A DNA stretch of 56,085 bases from Deinococcales bacterium (lineage in GTDB: Bacteria > Deinococcota > Deinococci > Deinococcales > JAAFIG01), in contig JAYWGM010000001.1 in the NCBI GenBank assembly GCA_043778225.1, positions 1 through 56,085 on the forward strand, read 5' to 3'. Below the pieces are notes generated by a model. The model was not told where the DNA came from and did no database searches. It was given only the letters and a program-made list of their open reading frames with translations. Positions 5,855 through 50,168 of the stretch are shown in pieces (position 1 is the first letter of the stretch; the number at the start of each line of letters is the position of its first letter). A program made the position numbers and the translations under genes.

Positions 5855-5922
5855 ACAAACCTCATATTGGTTCGCTGGACAAACCTCATATTGGTTCACT
5901 GGACAAACCTCATATTGGTTCG
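5855..5922. repeat. 24-bp tandem repeat, ~2.8 copies
   Basis: ACAAACCTCATATTGGTTC(G/A)CTGG starting at 5855, 5879 and 5903. Confidence 0.9.
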
Positions 5923-25072: not shown

Positions 25073-26023
25073 TTACCACCATTTGCGCCACTTAAAATAA
25101 ATCGCTAAACTCAAGCCAGCCAGAATAAACATCAGCCATGCAAAAACATAGCCCCACGGTTGCTCGAGTTCGGGCATAAACTTAAAGTTCATCCCCCAGA
25201 CACCGGCTAAAAAAGTTAATGGCAAAAAGATGCTGCTGATGGTTGTCAGGGTTTTCATGACTTCGTTCATGCGGTTACTTTGGACACTTAAATGGACATC
25301 AAGTAAGCTGGAGAGAATATCGCGGCTGGTGTCCAGACCATCGTAAATTCGGGTGAGATGATCGCCAATATCGCGTAAATACATGGCAGCGTTGGGTTCA
25401 AGTGCGGTCACGTGCCTCGAGAACTGTGCCACCGCCTCTCGAGCGCCACTGACCAGCCGACGAGCATGAATCATGATGTGTTTAAGTTCAAAGACCTCAG
25501 AAAAAAACGGATTGGTCGCCACTTGTTGCGGCGCAAAAACCCGCTCCTCGAGTTCGTCGGTTCTGGTTTCGAGTTCGTCTAAGAAGGTAAAAAAAGTATC
25601 TGTGCCACGGTCTAAAAGCGCATACAGCACATCCACGGGACGGATGTTGCTGCGCGTTTCAAATTCGTTCCAAACACCCTCCAAATAGGTGACTGGCTCA
25701 AGGCGAATCGTCAGCAGTGTCTCGAGTTCGGGAAACCAAAAAATGCTGATGCGTTCGGTGCGGTCAGTCACATCCTCGGGTTCGGCAAGGGTGCGAAAAA
25801 TCAGAAATAAATGCTCGGTGTAAGATTCAAATTTGCTCCAATGTCCTTTCTCGAGCGCATCCTCGAGTGCCAAAGGATGAAGCGCAAACATCGATTTGAG
25901 TTTTGTCACGTCGTCAGGGGTTGGCGATTCGGCATCAATCCAAACCCGCTCGGTACGCCCTAACTCGAGCGATTTACACTGCTCGAGACACTTGACCCGA
26001 ATGCCGCGATTTTCGGCTAACAC
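25073..26023 (-). CDS. corA: CorA Mg2+/Co2+ transporter
   Basis: 'HPLALEDA', 'MNEVMKTLT', 'GVWGMNF..MPEL'. Start uncertain. Confidence 0.92.
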   Translation of the reverse strand: MLAENRGIRVKCLEQCKSLELGRTERVWIDAESPTPDDVTKLKSMFALHPLALEDALEKGHWSKFESYTEHLFLIFRTLAEPEDVTDRTERISIFWFPELETLLTIRLEPVTYLEGVWNEFETRSNIRPVDVLYALLDRGTDTFFTFLDELETRTDELEERVFAPQQVATNPFFSEVFELKHIMIHARRLVSGAREAVAQFSRHVTALEPNAAMYLRDIGDHLTRIYDGLDTSRDILSSLLDVHLSVQSNRMNEVMKTLTTISSIFLPLTFLAGVWGMNFKFMPELEQPWGYVFAWLMFILAGLSLAIYFKWRKWW

Positions 26024-26090
26024 AGGATGTTTAGATTGAAACCTAGAAGTATTTTGCACAATACAAGTTAAAGATAGCACCTAACGAGTC

Positions 26091-26331
26091 TCTTGACCAT
26101 AGACACGCACCTTCTTGACCACATACGCGCACCTTCTTACCCCTAAAGCAGCACCTGTCTTGACCCTAAAGATGCACCTTACGGGCTGGGTCGCTGTCTT
26201 GACCCTAAAGATGCACCTTACGGGCTGGGTCGCTGTCTTGACCCTAAAGGGCTGGGTCGCTGTCTTGACCCTAAAGATGCACCTTACGGGCTGGGTCGCT
26301 GACAGGCGTGGTCGCTATCGGGCATGGTTCG
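26091..26331 (+). repeat. Nested/tandem cluster of a ~36-bp hairpin element
   Basis: Three left halves (26091, 26113, 26135), full units at 26158, 26197 and 26263, a 12-bp-deleted unit at 26236, then two right halves (26302, 26318). Confidence 0.85.
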
Positions 26332-26344
26332 CTTCCTCACAATG

Positions 26345-26382
26345 ACCTTTTAACCTTTTAACCTTTTAACCTTTTAACCTTT
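26345..26382. repeat. (ACCTTTTA)n octamer tract
   Basis: More than 4 perfect copies; reverse-strand tract at 31469-31492. Confidence 0.9.
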
Positions 26383-26504
26383 GATCTTGACACAAAACTG
26401 ACAACCTCTATATGCAGCTAAGCCATTAGTGCTATTGTCTCGCAACGCAAATGAAAACTCGAGCATCAAGCTCGAGCCAATTTGTAGCTCTTGGAGGAGA
26501 ATTT

Positions 26505-28226
26505 ATGAAGAAAAAAGCGATGTACACAACGTTAGCCGTTGGCTTTGGCACAATGCTGGCATTTGCCGCCGTGCCGAACAACACTTTGGTTTCGATGGTG
26601 ATTGGCGACATCACCACCCTCGACCCAAGCCAAGCCTACGATACCGCATCTGGCGAGGGTATCGAAAATATGTACGAAACCTTGTTGGGTTATGAAGGTC
26701 GGGATTTGACCAACCTCAAACCAAGCCTAGCCACCGCTTGGAGATTTTCTCCCGATGGTAAAACCCTGACCTTTACGCTGCGTAAGAATGTCAAGTTCCA
26801 CAGTGGCGCGACCATGAATTGCGATGATGTTGAGTACAGCTTTGAACGCCACTTGATTACCCACGATTCAGAAGCCTACCCCTACATTTCCGATACGCTG
26901 CTTGGCTTCCCGTACTGGGATGATGCCGCCAAAGCTAAGACCACTTTTGCAATGGTCAATAAAGCTGCCGAGTGTAACGCGGCTGGTCAATTGGTTTTGA
27001 CCTTGCCTAAAAAAGACCCAACCGCACTGGCAAAACTTTCTTACCTCGCCATGAGCGTGGTCGAGAAGAAGTACACCGTTGGCTTAGGCGAATGGAGCGG
27101 TGCAGAAGCCGATTGGAAAAACTGGATTTCTAAAGATATGTCCAACTCGGCACTCAGCCAAAAACCAAACGGTACTGGCGCATATCGCTTTGTCAGCCGC
27201 AATGCCACCCAACAGGTTTTCAAGCACTTCCCAGAATACTGGGATGGCGCAGCTAAAATCGAAAACGTAATTATCCAAAAAGTAGACGAACTGGCTACCC
27301 GTACCTTGGCACTAAACAAAGGCGATACCGACATTATGTCAGTCATTACTCGAGCCAACCTCAGCCAAGTGGCTGGTCAGCCGGGCGTAAAGGTGCTTGA
27401 CGATTTGCCTTCAAGTGCTTCAGAAGTATATTTCATGAACCAAAGCATTAAAGAACCAAAAGAACTTGGTAGTGGAAAATTAGATGGTAAAGGAATTCCA
27501 GCCAATTTCTTCTCGGATATTAATGTCCGTAAAGCCTTTGCTTTTGCTTTTGATCCAACCATTGTGATTAGTAAAATCTTCCTTGGAAAAGGCGAAATCC
27601 GCACCATGGCAATGCCAAGCACCTACCTCGGTTATGACAAGTCTGTACCTGTGTACAGCTACAATGCCGAAAAAGCAATTACTGCTTTCAAACGTGCTTT
27701 TGCTGGGCAAGTCTGGAGCAACGGCTTTGAAGTTAATATTTACTTCAACACAGGTAATATTCGTCGTCAGACCATCGCCGAGATTTTCAAAAGCAACGTT
27801 GAAAAACTTAATCCAAAATTCAAAGTCAAAGTTGTTGGAATTGCTTTCTCCGAACTTTTGGGCAAGGCTGACGAAGGTAAACTCTCGAGCTTGGTTGGTA
27901 GTTGGGCAGCCGATTATCCAGACTCGGATAACTTTTTACGGGCTTTCTATCACTCCGAAGGCGGTGCGTTCAAAGGTCGCTTGAGTTACGTTGACCCTGC
28001 TATGGACAAGTTAATTGACCAAGCCAAAGGTACGGATACCGTTGCGGCTCGAGTCACCCTTTACAAAGCCATTGGTCGCCGTGCTTATGAGCAAGTTCCA
28101 GCCGTTTTAATGCCAGCCGCCGTTGGTTTCTTGACCTACCGCGATAACCTCAAAGGTCTCGAGGCAAACTGGTCACCGCTTGCCAGTGGTTCGTTTGGTA
28201 CACTCTGGAAGAATCTTTCTAAGTAG
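26505..28226 (+). CDS. Peptide/nickel ABC transporter substrate-binding protein (family 5)
   Basis: GGAGG RBS, signal peptide, 'TLDP..YD', 'FTLRKNVKFHSG', 'GTGAY', 'WAADYPD'. Confidence 0.93.
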   Translation: MKKKAMYTTLAVGFGTMLAFAAVPNNTLVSMVIGDITTLDPSQAYDTASGEGIENMYETLLGYEGRDLTNLKPSLATAWRFSPDGKTLTFTLRKNVKFHSGATMNCDDVEYSFERHLITHDSEAYPYISDTLLGFPYWDDAAKAKTTFAMVNKAAECNAAGQLVLTLPKKDPTALAKLSYLAMSVVEKKYTVGLGEWSGAEADWKNWISKDMSNSALSQKPNGTGAYRFVSRNATQQVFKHFPEYWDGAAKIENVIIQKVDELATRTLALNKGDTDIMSVITRANLSQVAGQPGVKVLDDLPSSASEVYFMNQSIKEPKELGSGKLDGKGIPANFFSDINVRKAFAFAFDPTIVISKIFLGKGEIRTMAMPSTYLGYDKSVPVYSYNAEKAITAFKRAFAGQVWSNGFEVNIYFNTGNIRRQTIAEIFKSNVEKLNPKFKVKVVGIAFSELLGKADEGKLSSLVGSWAADYPDSDNFLRAFYHSEGGAFKGRLSYVDPAMDKLIDQAKGTDTVAARVTLYKAIGRRAYEQVPAVLMPAAVGFLTYRDNLKGLEANWSPLASGSFGTLWKNLSK

Positions 28227-31453: not shown

Positions 31454-31493
31454 GGGAGCAGTGTAAAGGGTTAAAAGGTTAAAAGGTTAAAAG

Positions 31494-31703
31494 CGAACCA
31501 GCCCGCTAAGTATCTCACGCCTGCATTTTAGATTTTTCACAAAACGGCAAATCTGTTCTTTCTCGTAAAATAGCACCTCACGGGCTACTCGCGCTCATTA
31601 CGGCGTGAGATACGTCACCCTTACTCCTGTTAGTCGGAAATGTTTTAGCAAAAAACTCTAAAACATTTCGGGGAGGTACTTAGGTGCATCTTTAGGTTCA
31701 AGA
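31494..31703 (-). repeat. Split copy of the 36-bp hairpin element
   Basis: Left half TCTTGAACCTAAAGATGCACC (31703-31683) and right half CGGGCTGGTTCG (31505-31494), separated by an insert. Confidence 0.75.
31509..31680. mobile_element. Putative MITE (172 bp) with TA duplication
   Basis: Imperfect TIRs AGTATCTCAC/AGTACCTCCC flanked by TA on both sides; removal restores GCACCTAGCGGGC. Confidence 0.5.
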
Positions 31704-31707
31704 CAGG

Positions 31708-33087
31708 TTAAAGAGAAAGCTGTTCTTCACTTTTCCCCTTTTCTGCTTTTTCCCTTTTTCCCTTTTCTGGTTCTACCAAAAGGTCGCTAAATTTTTGCAC
31801 CCGAACCTGTGAAACACGGCGGTCATCGGCAGATTCGACAATAAATTCCCAACCATCATAGGTGGTGCTTTCGCCAGCTTTAGGAATATCGCCAAAGGCG
31901 TGCATAATAAACCCAGAAACGGTTTCAAACTCGCCTTCGTCTTCTTCGTTGACGGTAATTTTGAGCAATTCTTCGACATCCGAAAAAGGCATATCGGCTT
32001 GCAGCAAGTAAACACCATCAGAAATGGCTTGGTAGGACTCCACTTCTGGCTCGTCGGTCTCGTCGTAAATTTCGCCAACCAGTTCCTCGAGAACATCCTC
32101 GAGCGTGGCAAGTCCGCCAGTGCCTTCGTGTTCGTCCACAACAATTGCCATATGGGTTTTTTTCTCGCGCAGACGATTGACAAAATCGCGCAGACCCATA
32201 CTTTCAGGGACAAAAATGGCTGGGCGCATGATGTTACGAACCGTTAAGTGGTCTAAATCCTCGAGCTTGCCAAGCACATCACGGGTGTACGCCACACCAA
32301 CGATATTGTCTTTATCGTCGTCGTAGACTGGGATTCTCGAGTAACCATGTTGGGTGTACTCCTTGAGTAATTCTCGTAAAGGTAAATCGGCTTCGATGGC
32401 GTTCATTTTGGTGCGTGGGGTCATGATGTTCCGCACGGTTTTATCGCCAAAATCAAAAACGTTGTAGACCATTTCCTTTTCGCCTTCGTCCAGCACACCT
32501 TGCTGGCTCGAGGCATTGACAATCATACGGATTTCATCCTCCGAGTGAGCCGTATACTTGCCACCTTCGGCGGGTTTGACCCCAAATAAACGGGTGATGG
32601 CTGCGCCGGTCATCTCGAGAAGACGTGCTATCGGACCAAAGACAAAAGCAAAGCCTTCAAATGGTCGAATAATCATCATCGCTAAACGCTCGGGCATGGC
32701 AATCGCAATGCTTTTTGGCACAAGCTCCGAGAAAATAACCGATAAGACCGCACTGATGCCAATGGCGATGGCTAAGCTAATTCCATTGGCAGCCCCAACA
32801 CTGAGCGCAAAAACATCCAACAGCACAGGTTTAACCAACGAACCAATGGACGGCTCAGCCACCACACCAGTGGTTAAACCAACCACCGTAATACCAAGTT
32901 GACTCGAGGCGATATAAAAATTGAGATTATTTTGGGCTTTTTGCACCCGCAAAGCCACTCGAGAACCTTTTTCAACAAGTTCTTGGATTTTTGTGTGCCG
33001 AGCGCTGACCAAAGCATACTCAGCCGCCACGAAAAACGCATTTAATAAAATCAGCACCACCAAAACAGCTAAACCAGTAATTTCCAT
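31708..33087 (-). CDS. Hemolysin-family CNNM/CBS/CorC protein (CorB/MpfA-like Mg2+ transporter)
   Basis: 'NAFFVAAEYAL', 'SELVPK', 'HSEDEI', 'MTPR', 'YSRIPV', 'TLEDVLEELVGEI'. Confidence 0.92.
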   Translation of the reverse strand: MEITGLAVLVVLILLNAFFVAAEYALVSARHTKIQELVEKGSRVALRVQKAQNNLNFYIASSQLGITVVGLTTGVVAEPSIGSLVKPVLLDVFALSVGAANGISLAIAIGISAVLSVIFSELVPKSIAIAMPERLAMMIIRPFEGFAFVFGPIARLLEMTGAAITRLFGVKPAEGGKYTAHSEDEIRMIVNASSQQGVLDEGEKEMVYNVFDFGDKTVRNIMTPRTKMNAIEADLPLRELLKEYTQHGYSRIPVYDDDKDNIVGVAYTRDVLGKLEDLDHLTVRNIMRPAIFVPESMGLRDFVNRLREKKTHMAIVVDEHEGTGGLATLEDVLEELVGEIYDETDEPEVESYQAISDGVYLLQADMPFSDVEELLKITVNEEDEGEFETVSGFIMHAFGDIPKAGESTTYDGWEFIVESADDRRVSQVRVQKFSDLLVEPEKGKREKAEKGKSEEQLSL

Positions 33088-34365: not shown

Positions 34366-34497
34366 TTGGCTACCTCTTACATAAACATAGCACCAATACA
34401 GATACTCGAGGGTATTACAAAATGCTGTAGTAAATGCTACCAGCCCTAGGCGCGAGAATTATTGCTCATAAGCGCCTAGCACTTAGGGACAGACCCT

Positions 34498-34532
34498 TCT
34501 TGACCATAAACACGCACCTTCGGGCATGGTCG
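34498..34532 (+). repeat. Single intact copy of the ~36-bp hairpin element
   Basis: TCTTGACCATAAACACGCACCTTCGGGCATGGTCG, lying inside the GGACAGAC/GTCTGTCC palindrome. Confidence 0.8.
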
Positions 34533-34615
34533 CCCGTGTCTGTCCTGCTTGGAGGTGGTCGAAAGTGCCAATGAAACCCTCGAGATTCAAACTCTGGATT
34601 TTACTAAAGCCTTTT

Positions 34616-42258: not shown

Positions 42259-44088
42259 ATGAAGTCTGCCCAAAGTTATTTACTGCTGGTCATTTTGCTG
42301 TTCTCGAGCCATGCGGTTGCTAAGTCGTTTACTTTCTCGAATATCGAGCAAGATATTTATTTAGCCGCCACTGGTCAGGTTCGGGTGATTGATACCCGCA
42401 CCTATAATTTCGATGGTGATTTTGGCAAAGCCTACCTGACGGTGGATACCCGAGGCTCGGTCAAGTTTGAGGGCGTGACAGCTTTGGATGGCAAGCCGTT
42501 TTTTGGTTATACCCAAGATGGCAATACGATTCGCTGGTCGTACCAAGCCAGCAATGAACAACGCCAATTTCGGATTATTTATAGCTTGTCTGGCGAATTA
42601 GATGTTGCCCAAGACGGCGCAAAATTTGACCGACAGGTTTTAGAACCCGAACACGTGGCGACTGCAAACTACACCGTGCGCCTACACGCCCCCAATGGTT
42701 CGCCAGACCCGTTTAAGGTCTTTGTGTTTTCAAAGAATTCGCGGCTTGGGACACTGGCTTTTGATGACCCCAAAGGCGTTGCCACCGTTAATATGCAAAA
42801 TGTTGCCGAAGACGAATGGGTACGAACCTTTGTGTTGCTGCCGGCTGGTCAGTTCTTAAAGCCAAACTTAGCTGGCAATCAGTTACCCGTCTGGCTCGAG
42901 GGCTTAAAAGTCGAGACCGCCGCTTTTCGCAATGCCTCGGCGCAAGCCATTGCCAGAGGTGGATTTGCACCACCGCCACCGCCACCACCAGCTTGGTTGT
43001 TGGCACTGCCATTTCTTGGGGTGTTGTTTTTTGGCGGCAACATCTGGAATGTCTACCAAAAATATGGGCGCGAGCCAAGGATTCCCGAAGTCGGCAAGTA
43101 TTACCGTGAGCCAGCCCAAAATATCCCGCCGGGAATTGTGCCTTTTGTCCAGACAATCATTGACCCAGGCAGCAGTGCCTTGGGGGCAGCCATCAGCGCA
43201 ACCTTGCTCGACTTTACACGGCGTGGGTTTTTGGAACTCAAAAGAGGGCAAACCAGTGGCTTTTTGGGCTTAGGCAAAAAAGAAGAAGTCCAATTTGAAT
43301 TGGCAAAACGCCCACAAGAAGCCGAGTTATCTGAGTTTGAAAACGAAATCTGGAGTGTCCTCAATCGCGCTCGAGGTTTTGATAATCTGGTCACACAAAC
43401 CGAATTAAAAACCTATTTCACCATGAACGCAAGCAGCCTTCAGGGGTTAGCAACCATCCCGCGCCAATGGTACGAAGAAAAATATGGGGCGCTGCTCGAC
43501 ACCGCTAATCAGGGAAAAACCACACCTTGGACAATTGCGATTTTTGTTTTTGGGATGCTGGCTTTTGGCAGTGGAATTGCGCTTTTGGCGGCGGATGCTA
43601 CGGCTTTGGGGGCAGCTTTGATGGTTTCTGGCATCGCCATGATTCTAGGCGGAGTGCTGGCTGGAATTGCTTTGTCGCGCTGGAATAAGGATAAATTACT
43701 CAATGCCAAACGTTGGGGCGCATATAAAAACTTCTTGCTCGATTTTTCGCAAATGGAAAGCGCTCCTGCTGAACATCTCAAACTCTGGGATTACCATTTT
43801 GTCTATGCCTGTGCTTTGGGCATTTCGCAGCAGTACCTCAAAAACCTTAAAACCCTTGCCGAGCGTTACCCACAGTATTATCACCCACCTTATTGGTTGC
43901 CAGCTTCGTATTATGCCAACAGCGACTTGTCAAATCAGTTGGCAGCCGTCGGCAGCCTAGCAACCCTATCGAGCAACCTCAGCAGTCTAGAAAGCGCTCT
44001 CTCGAGCAGCAGTGGTACAGGTGGCGGCTTTGGTGGTGGTAGTTCTGGCGGCTCGAGCGGTGGTGGTGGCTCGAGCGGCGCAAGTTAA
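42259..44088 (+). CDS. DUF2207 membrane protein
   Basis: Signal peptide, TMs, 'W..YKNFL', 'VYACALG', Gly/Ser tail; adjacent to lemA. Confidence 0.85.
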   Translation: MKSAQSYLLLVILLFSSHAVAKSFTFSNIEQDIYLAATGQVRVIDTRTYNFDGDFGKAYLTVDTRGSVKFEGVTALDGKPFFGYTQDGNTIRWSYQASNEQRQFRIIYSLSGELDVAQDGAKFDRQVLEPEHVATANYTVRLHAPNGSPDPFKVFVFSKNSRLGTLAFDDPKGVATVNMQNVAEDEWVRTFVLLPAGQFLKPNLAGNQLPVWLEGLKVETAAFRNASAQAIARGGFAPPPPPPPAWLLALPFLGVLFFGGNIWNVYQKYGREPRIPEVGKYYREPAQNIPPGIVPFVQTIIDPGSSALGAAISATLLDFTRRGFLELKRGQTSGFLGLGKKEEVQFELAKRPQEAELSEFENEIWSVLNRARGFDNLVTQTELKTYFTMNASSLQGLATIPRQWYEEKYGALLDTANQGKTTPWTIAIFVFGMLAFGSGIALLAADATALGAALMVSGIAMILGGVLAGIALSRWNKDKLLNAKRWGAYKNFLLDFSQMESAPAEHLKLWDYHFVYACALGISQQYLKNLKTLAERYPQYYHPPYWLPASYYANSDLSNQLAAVGSLATLSSNLSSLESALSSSSGTGGGFGGGSSGGSSGGGGSSGAS

Positions 44089-48587: not shown

Positions 48588-50168
48588 ATGCGTAGCGACG
48601 ACTTAGCCTTTTCTTGGCGTTCTGTGCCAAAAGCCATGCCGTTTAGCGCGAGGTTGGCTTTTGGCTTTGGCATTTTGACTGGTTTTTTGCACTTACCTTT
48701 TATTTTTGCGTGGCTTAGTGTTTTTCCTTTGGCTGGCTTGTTGTACTTGGTGGCTCGAGAAAACTCGCCAAAGAAATCAGCCAGGGTAGCTTTTTTTGGC
48801 TGGCTTGGCTTTTGGTCAATTCATTTATTTTGGCTGCCACAATCGTTTTCGCAAAGTTTTGGCTGGTTTGTCTGGTTTTTAATGCCACTACTTTGGGTTC
48901 TCGAGGCGGCTTTGAATGCCAGCGTGGCATGGTTAGCCCACCGATTGACCAAAACCAATCTCGGAACACTCTGGGTACTTTCTATGGGAACATTGCTGCT
49001 CGAGTACCTGCGTGCCAATATGGGTCCGTTGTCGTTTCCGTGGGGATTTTTTGGCTATGCCCTGACCGATACACCCTTGGCGCAACTGGCACAATTGGGT
49101 GGGGTTTATTTGCTCAGTTTTGTCTACTTGGGCTTAGCGGCTGGAATTGCCGCTTTGGGGTTTCTCGAGTGGCGTTGGTTGCCCGTGTCTTTGGTGTTGG
49201 TGTTGTTGGGCTTGGTCTTTGGCTTGACTCGTCCTGTGGCTGCCACACCAACTCGAGATGCACTTTTGGTTCAGGGCAACATCGACCCATTTGGGCGCTT
49301 GGCACGTCCGACGGGTAAATCCGACCTCGAGATTTTTAGCGATTTATCAAAAGTCAGCAATCCAAAAACCGTGATTGTTTACCCTGAAGCCGCTTTGCGT
49401 TTAGACCAAATTGCCAATTTATCTGGCTCGAGTTCCACATCGGGTATTGGCTCGAGTTCCACATCGGGTATCGGTACGAGTTCCACATCGGTTAGCGGCT
49501 CGAGTAATGCCCCCAAACTTGGGCGCTTAATTGCTGGTGTGGCAGACTTTCGCCAAGGCTCGAGGCTCAATGCTGTGGCAGCCATCAAAAATGGTACTTT
49601 ACTTGGCACATCCACCAAACAGCATCTTGTGCCTTTTGGTGAATTTTTTCCACTGCGCCGCGAGTTGGGGTTTATTTATAATCCAATTTTTTCTTTATTG
49701 GGCTTAGGGGCTGGTTTTGCTGGAATGGATTTGGTTTACCAAACCCGTACCCTCGAGTTGGATGGCGAACGCTTTGGCACGTATGTCTGCTACGACAGCG
49801 TTTTTCCAGATGTGGCGCGGGCAAGAGTTCTGGATGGCGCTCAGGTCTTGGTCAATGTTTCCAACGATGGTTGGTTTGGGCGCACATGGGGTATTGAACA
49901 GCATTTTATGATGGGTCGAGTTCGTGCCATCGAAACTGGGCGCTATGTTTTGCGAACTGGCAACACGGGTATTACCGCCGTCATTGACCCTTATGGGCGC
50001 GTCTTGCAACGCGCCCCGATACAACAGTCCTTGGCACTCAAAGCCAAATATGCCCTCGAGAATACCCAAACGCTCTATGTCCGTCTTGGCGATTGGGCAG
50101 TTTGGCTGGCACTATTGGCGGCTATTTTTGGTGCGTTAGCTTCACGCCAAGTCACCGATTCTTGGTGA
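48588..50168 (+). CDS. lnt: Apolipoprotein N-acyltransferase
   Basis: 'QGNI', 'YPEAA', 'KQHLVPFGE', 'CYDSVF', 'SNDGWFG', 'RAIE', 'NTGIT'. Confidence 0.93.
   Translation: MRSDDLAFSWRSVPKAMPFSARLAFGFGILTGFLHLPFIFAWLSVFPLAGLLYLVARENSPKKSARVAFFGWLGFWSIHLFWLPQSFSQSFGWFVWFLMPLLWVLEAALNASVAWLAHRLTKTNLGTLWVLSMGTLLLEYLRANMGPLSFPWGFFGYALTDTPLAQLAQLGGVYLLSFVYLGLAAGIAALGFLEWRWLPVSLVLVLLGLVFGLTRPVAATPTRDALLVQGNIDPFGRLARPTGKSDLEIFSDLSKVSNPKTVIVYPEAALRLDQIANLSGSSSTSGIGSSSTSGIGTSSTSVSGSSNAPKLGRLIAGVADFRQGSRLNAVAAIKNGTLLGTSTKQHLVPFGEFFPLRRELGFIYNPIFSLLGLGAGFAGMDLVYQTRTLELDGERFGTYVCYDSVFPDVARARVLDGAQVLVNVSNDGWFGRTWGIEQHFMMGRVRAIETGRYVLRTGNTGITAVIDPYGRVLQRAPIQQSLALKAKYALENTQTLYVRLGDWAVWLALLAAIFGALASRQVTDSW
49425..49505 (+). 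repeat. In-frame 24-bp tandem repeat within lnt
   Basis: GGCTCGAGTTCCACATCGGGTATT, 3 copies plus a partial; encodes GSSSTSGI. Confidence 0.88.

Follow-up and report, generated by a model that had tools for sequence, protein, structure and literature searches.

The window analysed here, a stretch of 56,085 nt from contig JAYWGM010000001.1 of a Deinococcales metagenome-assembled genome (MAG; GCA_043778225.1), carries at 26091–26332 a nest of short hairpin-forming repeats in which copies of one 36–39 nt unit, named E, lie inside other copies of the same unit. The window genome (G000; 4.03 Mb in 107 contigs, given C-numbers) was compared with 18 other genomes of its Deinococcales family (G001–G018) and with an outgroup of 102 genomes sampled from the order's four other families; all genomes compared are MAGs. 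The features of the locus, and of a related site elsewhere in the window, are as follows.

25073–26080, minus strand: CorA-like gene, with the nest in its upstream region.
26091–26112, plus strand: L1, left half of the outermost element (TCTT, stem GACCAT, AGACAC and GCACCT); one substitution against the left half of the copy at 34498; partner R1; the left flank ..GAGTC gives a C|T boundary.
26113–26134, plus strand: L2, left half of the second element, stem GACCAC, entering directly after the GCACCT of L1; intact copies of its subfamily lie on C4, C53 and C58; partner R2 (GTGGTC).
26135–26156, plus strand: L3, left half of the third element, whose TACCCC is a variant of the GCCCC subfamily; right half missing.
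26158–26194, plus strand: tandem unit 1, intact E with stem GACCC/GGGTC, preceded by g; 56.4 bits against the E covariance model.
26197–26233, plus strand: tandem unit 2, intact E.
26236–26260, plus strand: tandem unit 3, without 12 internal bases, GATGCACCTTAC; exact 27-nt repeat.
26263–26299, plus strand: tandem unit 4, intact E.
26300–26315, plus strand: R2, rest of the loop (tgac) and right half AGGCGTGGTCGC of the second element; its GTGGTC complements the GACCAC of L2.
26316–26332, plus strand: R1, rest of the loop (tatc) and right half GGGCATGGTTCGC of the outermost element, with one extra T; the next base is T, giving a C|T boundary.
26345–26382, plus strand: octamer array, 4.8 copies of ACCTTTTA, adjoining the nest; such arrays frequently house E copies.
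26451–28226, plus strand: gene for an ABC-transporter substrate-binding protein (SBP), transcribed away from the nest.
34484–34545, plus strand: hairpin of the GTAG type of repetitive extragenic palindromic (REP) sequence, TAGGGACAGAC..GTCTGTCC, whose loop holds the copy at 34498.
34498–34533, plus strand: solitary intact E, stem GACCAT/ATGGTC; 53.1 bits, with a predicted fold that agrees with the model.

The nest parses without remainder as L1-L2-L3-g-(four tandem units)-R2-R1, the order proposed in an initial annotation of the DNA, which had set its end one base short, at 26331. The three left halves (TCTTGACCATAGACACGCACCT, TCTTGACCACATACGCGCACCT and TCTTACCCCTAAAGCAGCACCT; 22 nt each, with stems GACCAT, GACCAC and TACCCC) all end in GCACCT and lead into four head-to-tail units of TCTTGACCCTAAAGATGCACCTTACGGGCTGGGTCGC separated by tg; the four units reported earlier are all present, but the third is short of 12 internal bases. 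On the right, tgacAGGCGTGGTCGC (R2) pairs with GACCAC and tatcGGGCATGGTTCGC (R1) with GACCAT, so that the stems close in nested order, GACCAT/ATGGT(T)C outside and GACCAC/GTGGTC inside, as had been claimed. The earlier annotation is equally confirmed in the near-reconstruction by L1 and R1 of the intact copy at 34498–34533 (one substitution, one additional T in R1 and two additional loop bases, ta) and in the common point of interruption, which in every shell lies just after GCACCT, with CTG flanking the inner units. L3 indeed has no right half here; on C42, where the nest is three deep, an identical left half has GGGCTTGGGGCGC as its closing partner, and we infer that R3 was lost from the window nest by deletion, for which a deletion between repeated CGCTGAC strings could be one route. 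The 12-nt deletion in unit 3 breaks the C|T junction rule set out below and is probably an ordinary deletion, and the four tandem units could reflect local amplification or slippage after two copies had come to adjoin. The locus records three self-insertions in succession, together with a tandem expansion of its innermost unit to four copies, the deletion of 12 nt within unit 3 and the loss of one right half. A 76-codon open reading frame (ORF) at 26115–26345 is a by-product of the E repeats.

A misassembly, which the initial annotation had allowed for, did not appear in the parts covered by independent contigs: Logan contigs from three runs span 25850–26157 or 26029–26179 with zero differences, confirming L1-L2-L3-unit 1, and a 59-nt Logan contig over 26220–26278, also with zero differences, confirms the truncated unit 3; no single Logan contig bridges the whole array, and the number of tandem units and the R2–R1 side come from the MAG assembly alone. 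Homology of relatives to the window locus ends near 26040 and restarts near 26385. No orthologous empty site was obtainable for this nest, corA and the SBP gene being on separate contigs in all relatives; upstream of corA, G005 carries tandem E in reverse orientation and G002 carries no E. G000 is the only genome in which the corA-like and SBP genes adjoin (five same-genus genomes have a small divergent gene upstream of the SBP gene and corA on another contig), and the nest therefore marks a rearrangement junction.

E is a single bulged hairpin that begins with TCTT and continues with a 4–7 bp stem, an A-rich bulge of 5–7 nt, the inner hairpin GCACC-TNNC-GGGC, the return stem and GC; the inner hairpin and the TCTT/CGC ends are invariant. 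The outer stem occurs as GACCAT/ATGGTC, GACCAC/GTGGTC, GACCC/GGGTC, GAACC/GGTTC, GATTCC/GGAATC, GCCC/GGGC, GCAC/GTGC or GACTC/GAGTC, and in a plain MAFFT alignment compensatory changes affect five of its six pairs. Cells changed on both sides number 32, against 18.8 in shuffled alignments; the observed covariation score was reached by none of 500 shuffles, and controls with the stem slid along the alignment scored less than half of it. MAFFT followed by RNAalifold with no given structure returned the invariant inner stem only, because indels misalign the outer stem, and a structure drawn by hand was used from there on. With a covariance model made from 39 distinct copies, 137 intact copies are found in G000 at an expectation value ≤ 0.01. 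The motif proposed in the initial annotation matches 119 times in the 4.03 Mb, and a shorter core pattern 123 times, against 0 for its reversed control; the scarcity of copies that had been named as a counter-argument was not seen. An Rfam 15 scan of 25500–27000 gave 0 matches at an expectation value ≤ 1. E is mostly extragenic, with 27 of 125 copies wholly within stop-free frames of at least 200 aa, which cover 83% of the genome (a crude proxy, as is the stem-pairing score used below).

Among the genomes compared, E was found in one family. The covariance model matches all 18 sister genomes, where copy counts are lower bounds (at least) except in G002 (same genus, 2.3 Mb, 82% complete), with one weak match only, and G013 (closed, 5.1 Mb), with ten; it found E in none of the 102 outgroup genomes. 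A pattern scan of 185,579 species genomes matched at least 121 stretches, and among the 80 matches listed all come from MAGs titled "Deinococcales bacterium".

Empty orthologous sites in sister genomes, a comparison that the initial annotation had suggested, were found at several places. A tRNA gene on C28 of G000 reads ..CATCAGTC[T TCTTGACCC...GGGTCGC]TTATAAACTGA.., that is, CAGTC|[T+E]|TTATAA, which places the insertion between C32 and U33 of the anticodon loop. ARAGORN reports no tRNA in the gene as it stands, tRNA-Ile(TAT) once the 37 nt are removed, and a 37-nt "intron" at position 33 in its intron mode; the orthologous tRNA is uninterrupted in G001, G003, G005 and G006, and no second tRNA-Ile(TAT) was found in G000. 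Between the stop of a trpE-like gene and the start of the gene described below as RAYT-like, an intact GTAG-type hairpin, GGACAGACACGGGGGTC|TGTCCCTAC, is present in G001 and G007, is filled at its C|T by E of two different subfamilies in G000 and G006, and is missing from G004. In the leader of an IS110-family insertion sequence (IS), the site GTCCGAACGGC|TGCCTGAACC is empty in G000 and G005 and 39–40 nt longer in six genomes, the filler being an E of the GACCCC type in G014, G015, G016 and G012 (preceded by a TG leader in G012) and of the GCTCGT type in G018 and G003. In a decayed IS605 tnpA of G005, the two tblastn matches, to residues 22–80 and 86–124 of the protein that is intact in G000, are separated by 38 nt too many, and an E occupies the gap. 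Within G000, 18 paralogous TAGGGACAGAC..GTCTGTCC hairpins found with one pattern comprise 13 that are empty and five with E in the loop, the copy at 34498 among them. These comparisons of filled with empty sites show true insertion of E.

The E-hit tRNA belongs to an array of unusual tRNA genes whose anticodons shift among relatives (G000:C28:45850–46100; L043, 1380–1680; L234–L237): at the orthologous position the anticodon is TAT in G000, TCT in G001 and G005, TGT in G003 and TGA in G006, and the gene abuts odd tRNA-like genes of 85–90 nt (Phe, Leu, Asp and one with a four-base anticodon).

Nesting of the kind seen in the window is recurrent. At about 25 loci of G000 at least one left half runs directly into another element. 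Three-deep nests include those on C42, C85, C101 and C39, and by a crude contiguous-pairing score the shells of G000 pair in nested order in 31 of 37 cases, against 16 of 34 in crossed order. Among the 121 loci from other Deinococcales MAGs 29 are nested; one of them (L088) has four levels, whose stems all close in order. The inner E is always oriented like the outer one: neither the 28 junctions of G000 nor the roughly 46 of the loci from other MAGs include an inverted one. The count of 28 leaves out 10 junctions from an unrelated 25-nt tandem repeat, TCTTGCATGGGAGAATCTGCACCAG (C72:78870–78950 and C83:1–190), which had matched the loose left-half pattern. Adjacent intact copies are head-to-tail in 23 cases and inverted in two. 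Three loci (C94, C36 and C31) show a second point of interruption, which lies in the right arm at GGGC|TTGGGTCGC. Many E loci are copies of larger composite repeats, so that events are partly non-independent; this applies to the nests on C85, C101, C39 and C26, which lie in copies of one larger repeat. That repeat is MITE-like (resembling a miniature inverted-repeat transposable element), ..cgaattaacttaatcactc..tttgacca [E or nest] ttagtcggttaatcagtcaaaatac.., and bears the same triple nest in several copies. Composite repeats occur on C85, C101, C39, C26, C36, C71, C12 and C98, and a second composite, ..agtatctcccgcctg [E] gcattttagatttttcacaaaacggcaaatctgt [E] gctcattacggcgtgagatac.., stands at many contig ends. 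E repeats break assemblies, and several to many G000 contigs terminate in E copies.

Every defined insertion can be placed as a T...C insert between C and T. The bases between the cut and TCTTG (T, TG, TC or TT) behave as a leader carried by E: they equal the next loop bases in 10 nests, which mimics a duplication, and differ from them in seven, for example where TG has entered a TTC loop. A classical target-site duplication was dropped on this ground, as the inherited leader explains both sets; the apparent duplication, 1–3 nt and variable, is not of fixed length as in a MITE. Tandem copies of E have a period of 38 nt with junction T and 39 nt with junction TG. Among 111 distinct contexts compared with random positions, CT stands directly 5' of TCTTG in 40 (5.4% at random), CTG in 22 (1.6% at random), and T directly after CGC in 67 (25.8% at random). 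Odd local products are likewise bounded by C|T, namely a duplicated TTGGGTCGC on C51 and, at GACCC|TAAAG on C28, a fusion of one E with the 3' portion of a second. The strongly favoured C|T targets are exposed hairpin loops: the loop of E itself (GCACC|T), the loops of GTAG-type REP hairpins and the tRNA anticodon loop. That E hits its own loop accounts for the Russian-doll nests.

E is thus very probably a mobile element that nests in itself, and the abundant family, recurrent one-way nests with matched stems and empty sites in sisters bear out the initial annotation's proposal of repeated site-specific insertion of a tiny non-autonomous element. The best overall explanation, which stands at about an even chance, is that E is a non-autonomous, single-hairpin mobile element moved in a reaction on single-stranded DNA by a Y1 HUH enzyme of the REP-associated kind (REP-associated tyrosine transposase, RAYT, or TnpAREP) acting in trans. 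The enzyme would cut at C|T on both sides of the hairpin and free a strand of 38–39 nt, which would be rejoined at another C|T near a bound hairpin, with the leader bases travelling along. A protein bound to a resident E would cut a nearby C|T, the most exposed of which is in the loop of the hairpin that it holds. Self-nests, tandem arrays and the preference for other hairpin loops would all follow from this, as would the strict orientation, because only the top strand has both the recognised hairpin and the loop C|T. The head-to-tail arrays (period 38–39) may arise from insertion at the C|T on the 3' edge of a resident copy or from local amplification. A narrower version, in which E is a minimal single-hairpin, single-strand transposon whose 37-nt hairpin serves as both ends for a domesticated RAYT-type HUH enzyme that, while bound to a resident hairpin, pastes 38–39 nt strands into any exposed C|T nearby (in the loop of E itself, in other REP loops or in tRNA anticodon loops), is offered tentatively.

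The biochemistry of REP-associated enzymes has these features. E. coli TnpAREP is reported to cut single-stranded DNA at C|T with little other sequence need, to require a functional REP hairpin in cis and to act on one strand only, and its strand transfer builds tandem copies; excised single-stranded circles and rolling-circle-like amplification were proposed by the same authors (PMC3333891). Other RAYTs are reported to cut at CT and CA (PMC8266576). The E junction rule matches this published C|T cleavage by REP-associated Y1 HUH transposases, and the match would link E to enzymes of that kind.

A search for genes of the three classes that the initial annotation had suggested (RAYT/HUH, IS110-like and reverse transcriptase) found one of each in G000. 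The sole RAYT-like gene (C32:27219–27881) encodes protein P0001 (221 aa), which has an HUH motif (HVH) and a Tyr-containing C-terminal motif, ..FWQHNYWERVIR.., and scores 36 bits against Pfam Y1_Tnp (cut-off 23); the gene was missed by Pfam PF01797 alone and recovered with the protein of a relative. Homologues occur in 16 of the 18 family genomes, and none was found in G002, which has almost no E. In G000 and G006 a copy of E lies 24 nt upstream of the RAYT-like gene, but inside the GTAG hairpin that is empty in G001 and G007. A RAYT-like HUH enzyme is the candidate for the enzyme that moves E, at a little short of an even chance. A search for Y2 (IS91-type) transposases returned no match, but neither did its controls, and it is uninformative. 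The resident IS605 was rejected as a source of E, as its end hairpins look nothing like E.

The RAYT-like genes have peculiarities of their own. In 10 of 10 such ORFs examined in the family (G000:C32:27219–27881 and loci L202–L210), an inverted pair of GTAG-type REP hairpins lies between the HUH and Tyr motifs and is translated as part of the protein; from genome to genome the hairpins vary in sequence, with covariation, and in G015 an E is inserted in one of the hairpins. A second RAYT-like paralogue (G001:C284 and G003:C98; L198 and L199) contains a tandem peptide repeat, DHDQNPVR-like, within its ORF, which suggests that short DNA repeats expand there.

Several observations weigh against a RAYT-type, single-strand account. 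The best NCBIfam match of P0001, REP_Tyr_transpos, reaches 58.9 bits, under the cut-off of 80; no RAYT-like homologue was found in the E-rich genome G005, which is fragmented and 84% complete; and homologues occur in 22 of the 102 genomes from families where E was not found. The hairpins inside and beside the RAYT-like genes are of the GTAG type and not E, and the TCTT tag of E is unlike the GTAG or CGTC of known REPs. A few E targets are C|A or C|C rather than C|T. E shows no bias of orientation with respect to GC skew (48 to 46) or local gene direction (46 to 56), in a genome of weak skew where such a comparison has low power. The predicted stability of the hairpin is ordinary (−4.5 kcal/mol, z −1.1), and neither E nor the whole nest differs from shuffles in folding stability, so the fold of E rests on its covariation. 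Finally, a T...C insert at C|T cannot formally be told apart from a target duplication of the two bases CT, and the sequence by itself is therefore no proof of single-strand C|T chemistry.

The alternative that fares best is that E is mobile but is moved by an enzyme of an unrecognised type, or by way of an RNA that a reverse transcriptase turns back into DNA. Neither position nor strict co-occurrence ties any enzyme to E, one reverse-transcriptase gene is present in G000, and the covarying hairpin could equally be an RNA fold; nothing, however, connects the reverse transcriptase with E, and no poly-A, template-switch or target-primed signature was seen at E junctions. Moreover, precise C|T junctions, short inherited leaders, clustering in cis at resident hairpins and head-to-tail arrays correspond to the products of HUH strand transfer in vitro (PMC3333891). 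This alternative is judged unlikely.

A rather improbable alternative is that E moves in double-stranded form, with CT as a 2-nt core or target duplication, either through an IS110-family recombinase (DEDD, bridge-RNA-guided) or through a DDE transposase acting on E as a MITE. Every defined insertion can be written as CT[TCTTG...GGTCG]CT, and a CT core is reported for IS110/IS621. IS110 insertion is orientation-specific. G000 has one IS110-family element (PF01548, PF02371), which sits at E's own nesting position with CT on both sides (GCACCT|TGTAAGTT...GGCTGCT|TACGGGC), and IS110 homologues occupy the E-loop position in eight of eight genomes. Homologues were found, however, in only seven of the 18 family genomes, against 18 of 18 for E; the targets of E (tRNA loop, REP loops, octamer arrays, coding DNA) share C|T only, where a bridge RNA would be expected to guide a longer match; and the ends of the IS110 element (TGTAAGTT.../...ACACGGCTG) are unlike those of E. 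It is for these three reasons that the IS110-family element is unlikely as the mover of E. A double-stranded circle of 38 bp would, in addition, presumably be sterically implausible. With regard to a DDE transposase, a MITE would insert both ways, whereas inverted junctions number 0 of about 74; the ends of E are not conserved inverted repeats, its only inverted repeat being a variable, covarying stem that fits recognition of a fold rather than of terminal inverted repeats; and no IS with E-like ends was seen.

What the IS110 family does show is that E is the specific landing pad of one of its members. The element (G000:C26:30445–31609; about 1.17 kb, with a 322-aa DEDD transposase; relatives L215–L221) lies, in G000, in the loop of the E at the centre of a triple nest on C26, with CT on both sides, and its homologues in seven other family genomes (66–90% identity) each lie at the same position in an E loop. 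The 5' leader of the IS110 element itself contains a target-like GCACC(T/C) string.

An origin of the nest without insertion, by replication slippage or unequal recombination in a tandem array or as an assembly artefact of a repeat-rich MAG, is very remote, for although the four inner units form a plain tandem array that slippage could expand, the whole array is unspanned by any Logan contig and many assembly contigs end in E, slippage cannot set the left halves of three subfamilies in a row and then close them in reverse with matching stems, the same nest architecture recurs in independently assembled MAGs, L1-L2-L3-unit 1 is covered by single contigs from three runs with zero differences, and orthologous empty sites exist. 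The initial annotation's statement that the nest is not simple slippage accordingly holds for the shells, and less so for the four tandem units, for which local amplification or slippage could suffice.

Other repeats of the genome were recorded alongside E. Octamer arrays of the TTTTAACC type occur in the window at 26345–26382, 31464–31493, 31694–31767 and 43835–43857, and across G000 there are 35 arrays with at least two exact TTTTAACC units; E is often inside them, and the array always reads TTTTAACC on the strand of E. CTCGAG is by far the commonest hexamer, with 24,877 occurrences in 4.03 Mb (27 times the expectation from composition) and 373 in the window (6.7 per kb); as a palindrome iterated to this degree it resembles HIP1 of cyanobacteria. 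Tandem Repeats Finder reports two 24-nt tandem repeats in the window, at 5855–5922 (2.8 copies) and 49420–49505 (3.5 copies).

Among known systems, IS200/IS605 "peel and paste" elements and their miniature derivatives, palindrome-associated transposable elements (PATEs), resemble E in their strand- and orientation-specific insertion by a short sequence, with no classical target duplication, and their hairpins are recognised by a Y1 HUH enzyme (PMC8266576). These elements, however, have two different subterminal hairpins and a guide-read target of 4–5 nt, whereas E has one hairpin and C|T only. G000 has one IS605-type tnpA-tnpB pair, and the IS605-type element of G005 is a victim of E insertion, not a source of E. 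IS110-family insertion sequences that target REP hairpins, such as ISPpu9 of Pseudomonas putida (PMC12288879), share the habit of the IS110 element found in E loops; this comparison concerns the passenger that lands on E and not E itself, its distribution (seven of 18) being unlike that of E.

The closest likeness is to REP sequences, their doublets (REPINs) and RAYTs. E falls in the same size class (20–40 nt) and is, like them, a short imperfect palindrome, here 36–39 nt, in high copy number, a bulged hairpin behind a conserved 5' tetranucleotide, with hundreds of mostly intergenic copies inherited within a lineage; its C|T junction is the dinucleotide cut by TnpAREP of E. coli, Stenotrophomonas and Marinomonas (PMC3333891 and PMC8266576). 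One active strand and tandem amplification add to the likeness, as do the single-copy RAYT-like gene and the classic GTAG REPs of G000. E differs in its tag: the REP-class tag at one end is given as GTAG or CGTC (PMC3733652 and PMC8266576), and neither is present on either strand of E, whose ends are TCTT (5') and CGC (3'). The mobile unit also appears to be a single hairpin and not a REPIN inverted doublet or an alternating bacterial interspersed mosaic element (BIME), intact neighbours being on the same strand in 23 cases and on opposite strands in two, and there is no REPtron arrangement of E around the RAYT-like gene. E also nests in its own loop, a habit for which no description in REPs was found; searches of the literature on self-nesting REPs, and on repeats of this kind in Deinococcales, gave no relevant result.

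The spread of REP-type repeats is described as poorly understood (PMC8266576), and natural REP-type integration products with matching empty sites are scarce; the E family supplies dozens, among them self-nests, one site filled by two subfamilies, and insertions into a tRNA anticodon loop and into other mobile elements. They all obey a single, simple rule in agreement with what RAYTs do in vitro, so that one protein and a handful of oligonucleotides would suffice for a direct test of the mechanism. If the single-hairpin transposon reading is true, E would give the first natural, base-resolved record of the integration of a REP-class repeat, and a singlet, rather than a REPIN doublet, could be a replicating unit. 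In this uncultured Deinococcales family an element of 37 nt reshapes promoters, insertion sequences and tRNA genes, and an IS110-family element uses it as a landing pad. So small a hairpin, directing insertion in one orientation at a dinucleotide, also has interest as a minimal DNA-insertion module.

The initial annotation had likened the nest to the small dispersed repeats (SDRs) of Nostoc, a likeness that holds for behaviour; REP/RAYT is the closer analogue because of the C|T junctions, the single bulged hairpin with its 5' tetranucleotide and the coexistence of GTAG-type REPs with a RAYT-like gene. SDR1–8 of Nostoc punctiforme, reported by Elhai and colleagues in 2008 (Genome Res 18:1484), are said to be very small mobile repeats with a common hairpin fold and compensatory changes, to nest in one another and to lie in short tandem (heptamer or octamer) arrays, and no enzyme is known to move them. 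They are said to be 21–27 nt long, with a defined consensus, and to belong to the Nostocaceae, whereas E is 36–39 nt long, belongs to the Deinococcota and not the Cyanobacteria, and has no sequence likeness to them. In E, moreover, the C|T, inherited-leader and one-orientation rule can be read from several orthologous empty sites. E is a new REP/SDR-like miniature mobile element, single-hairpin, TCTT-tagged and self-nesting, with a readable C|T rule.

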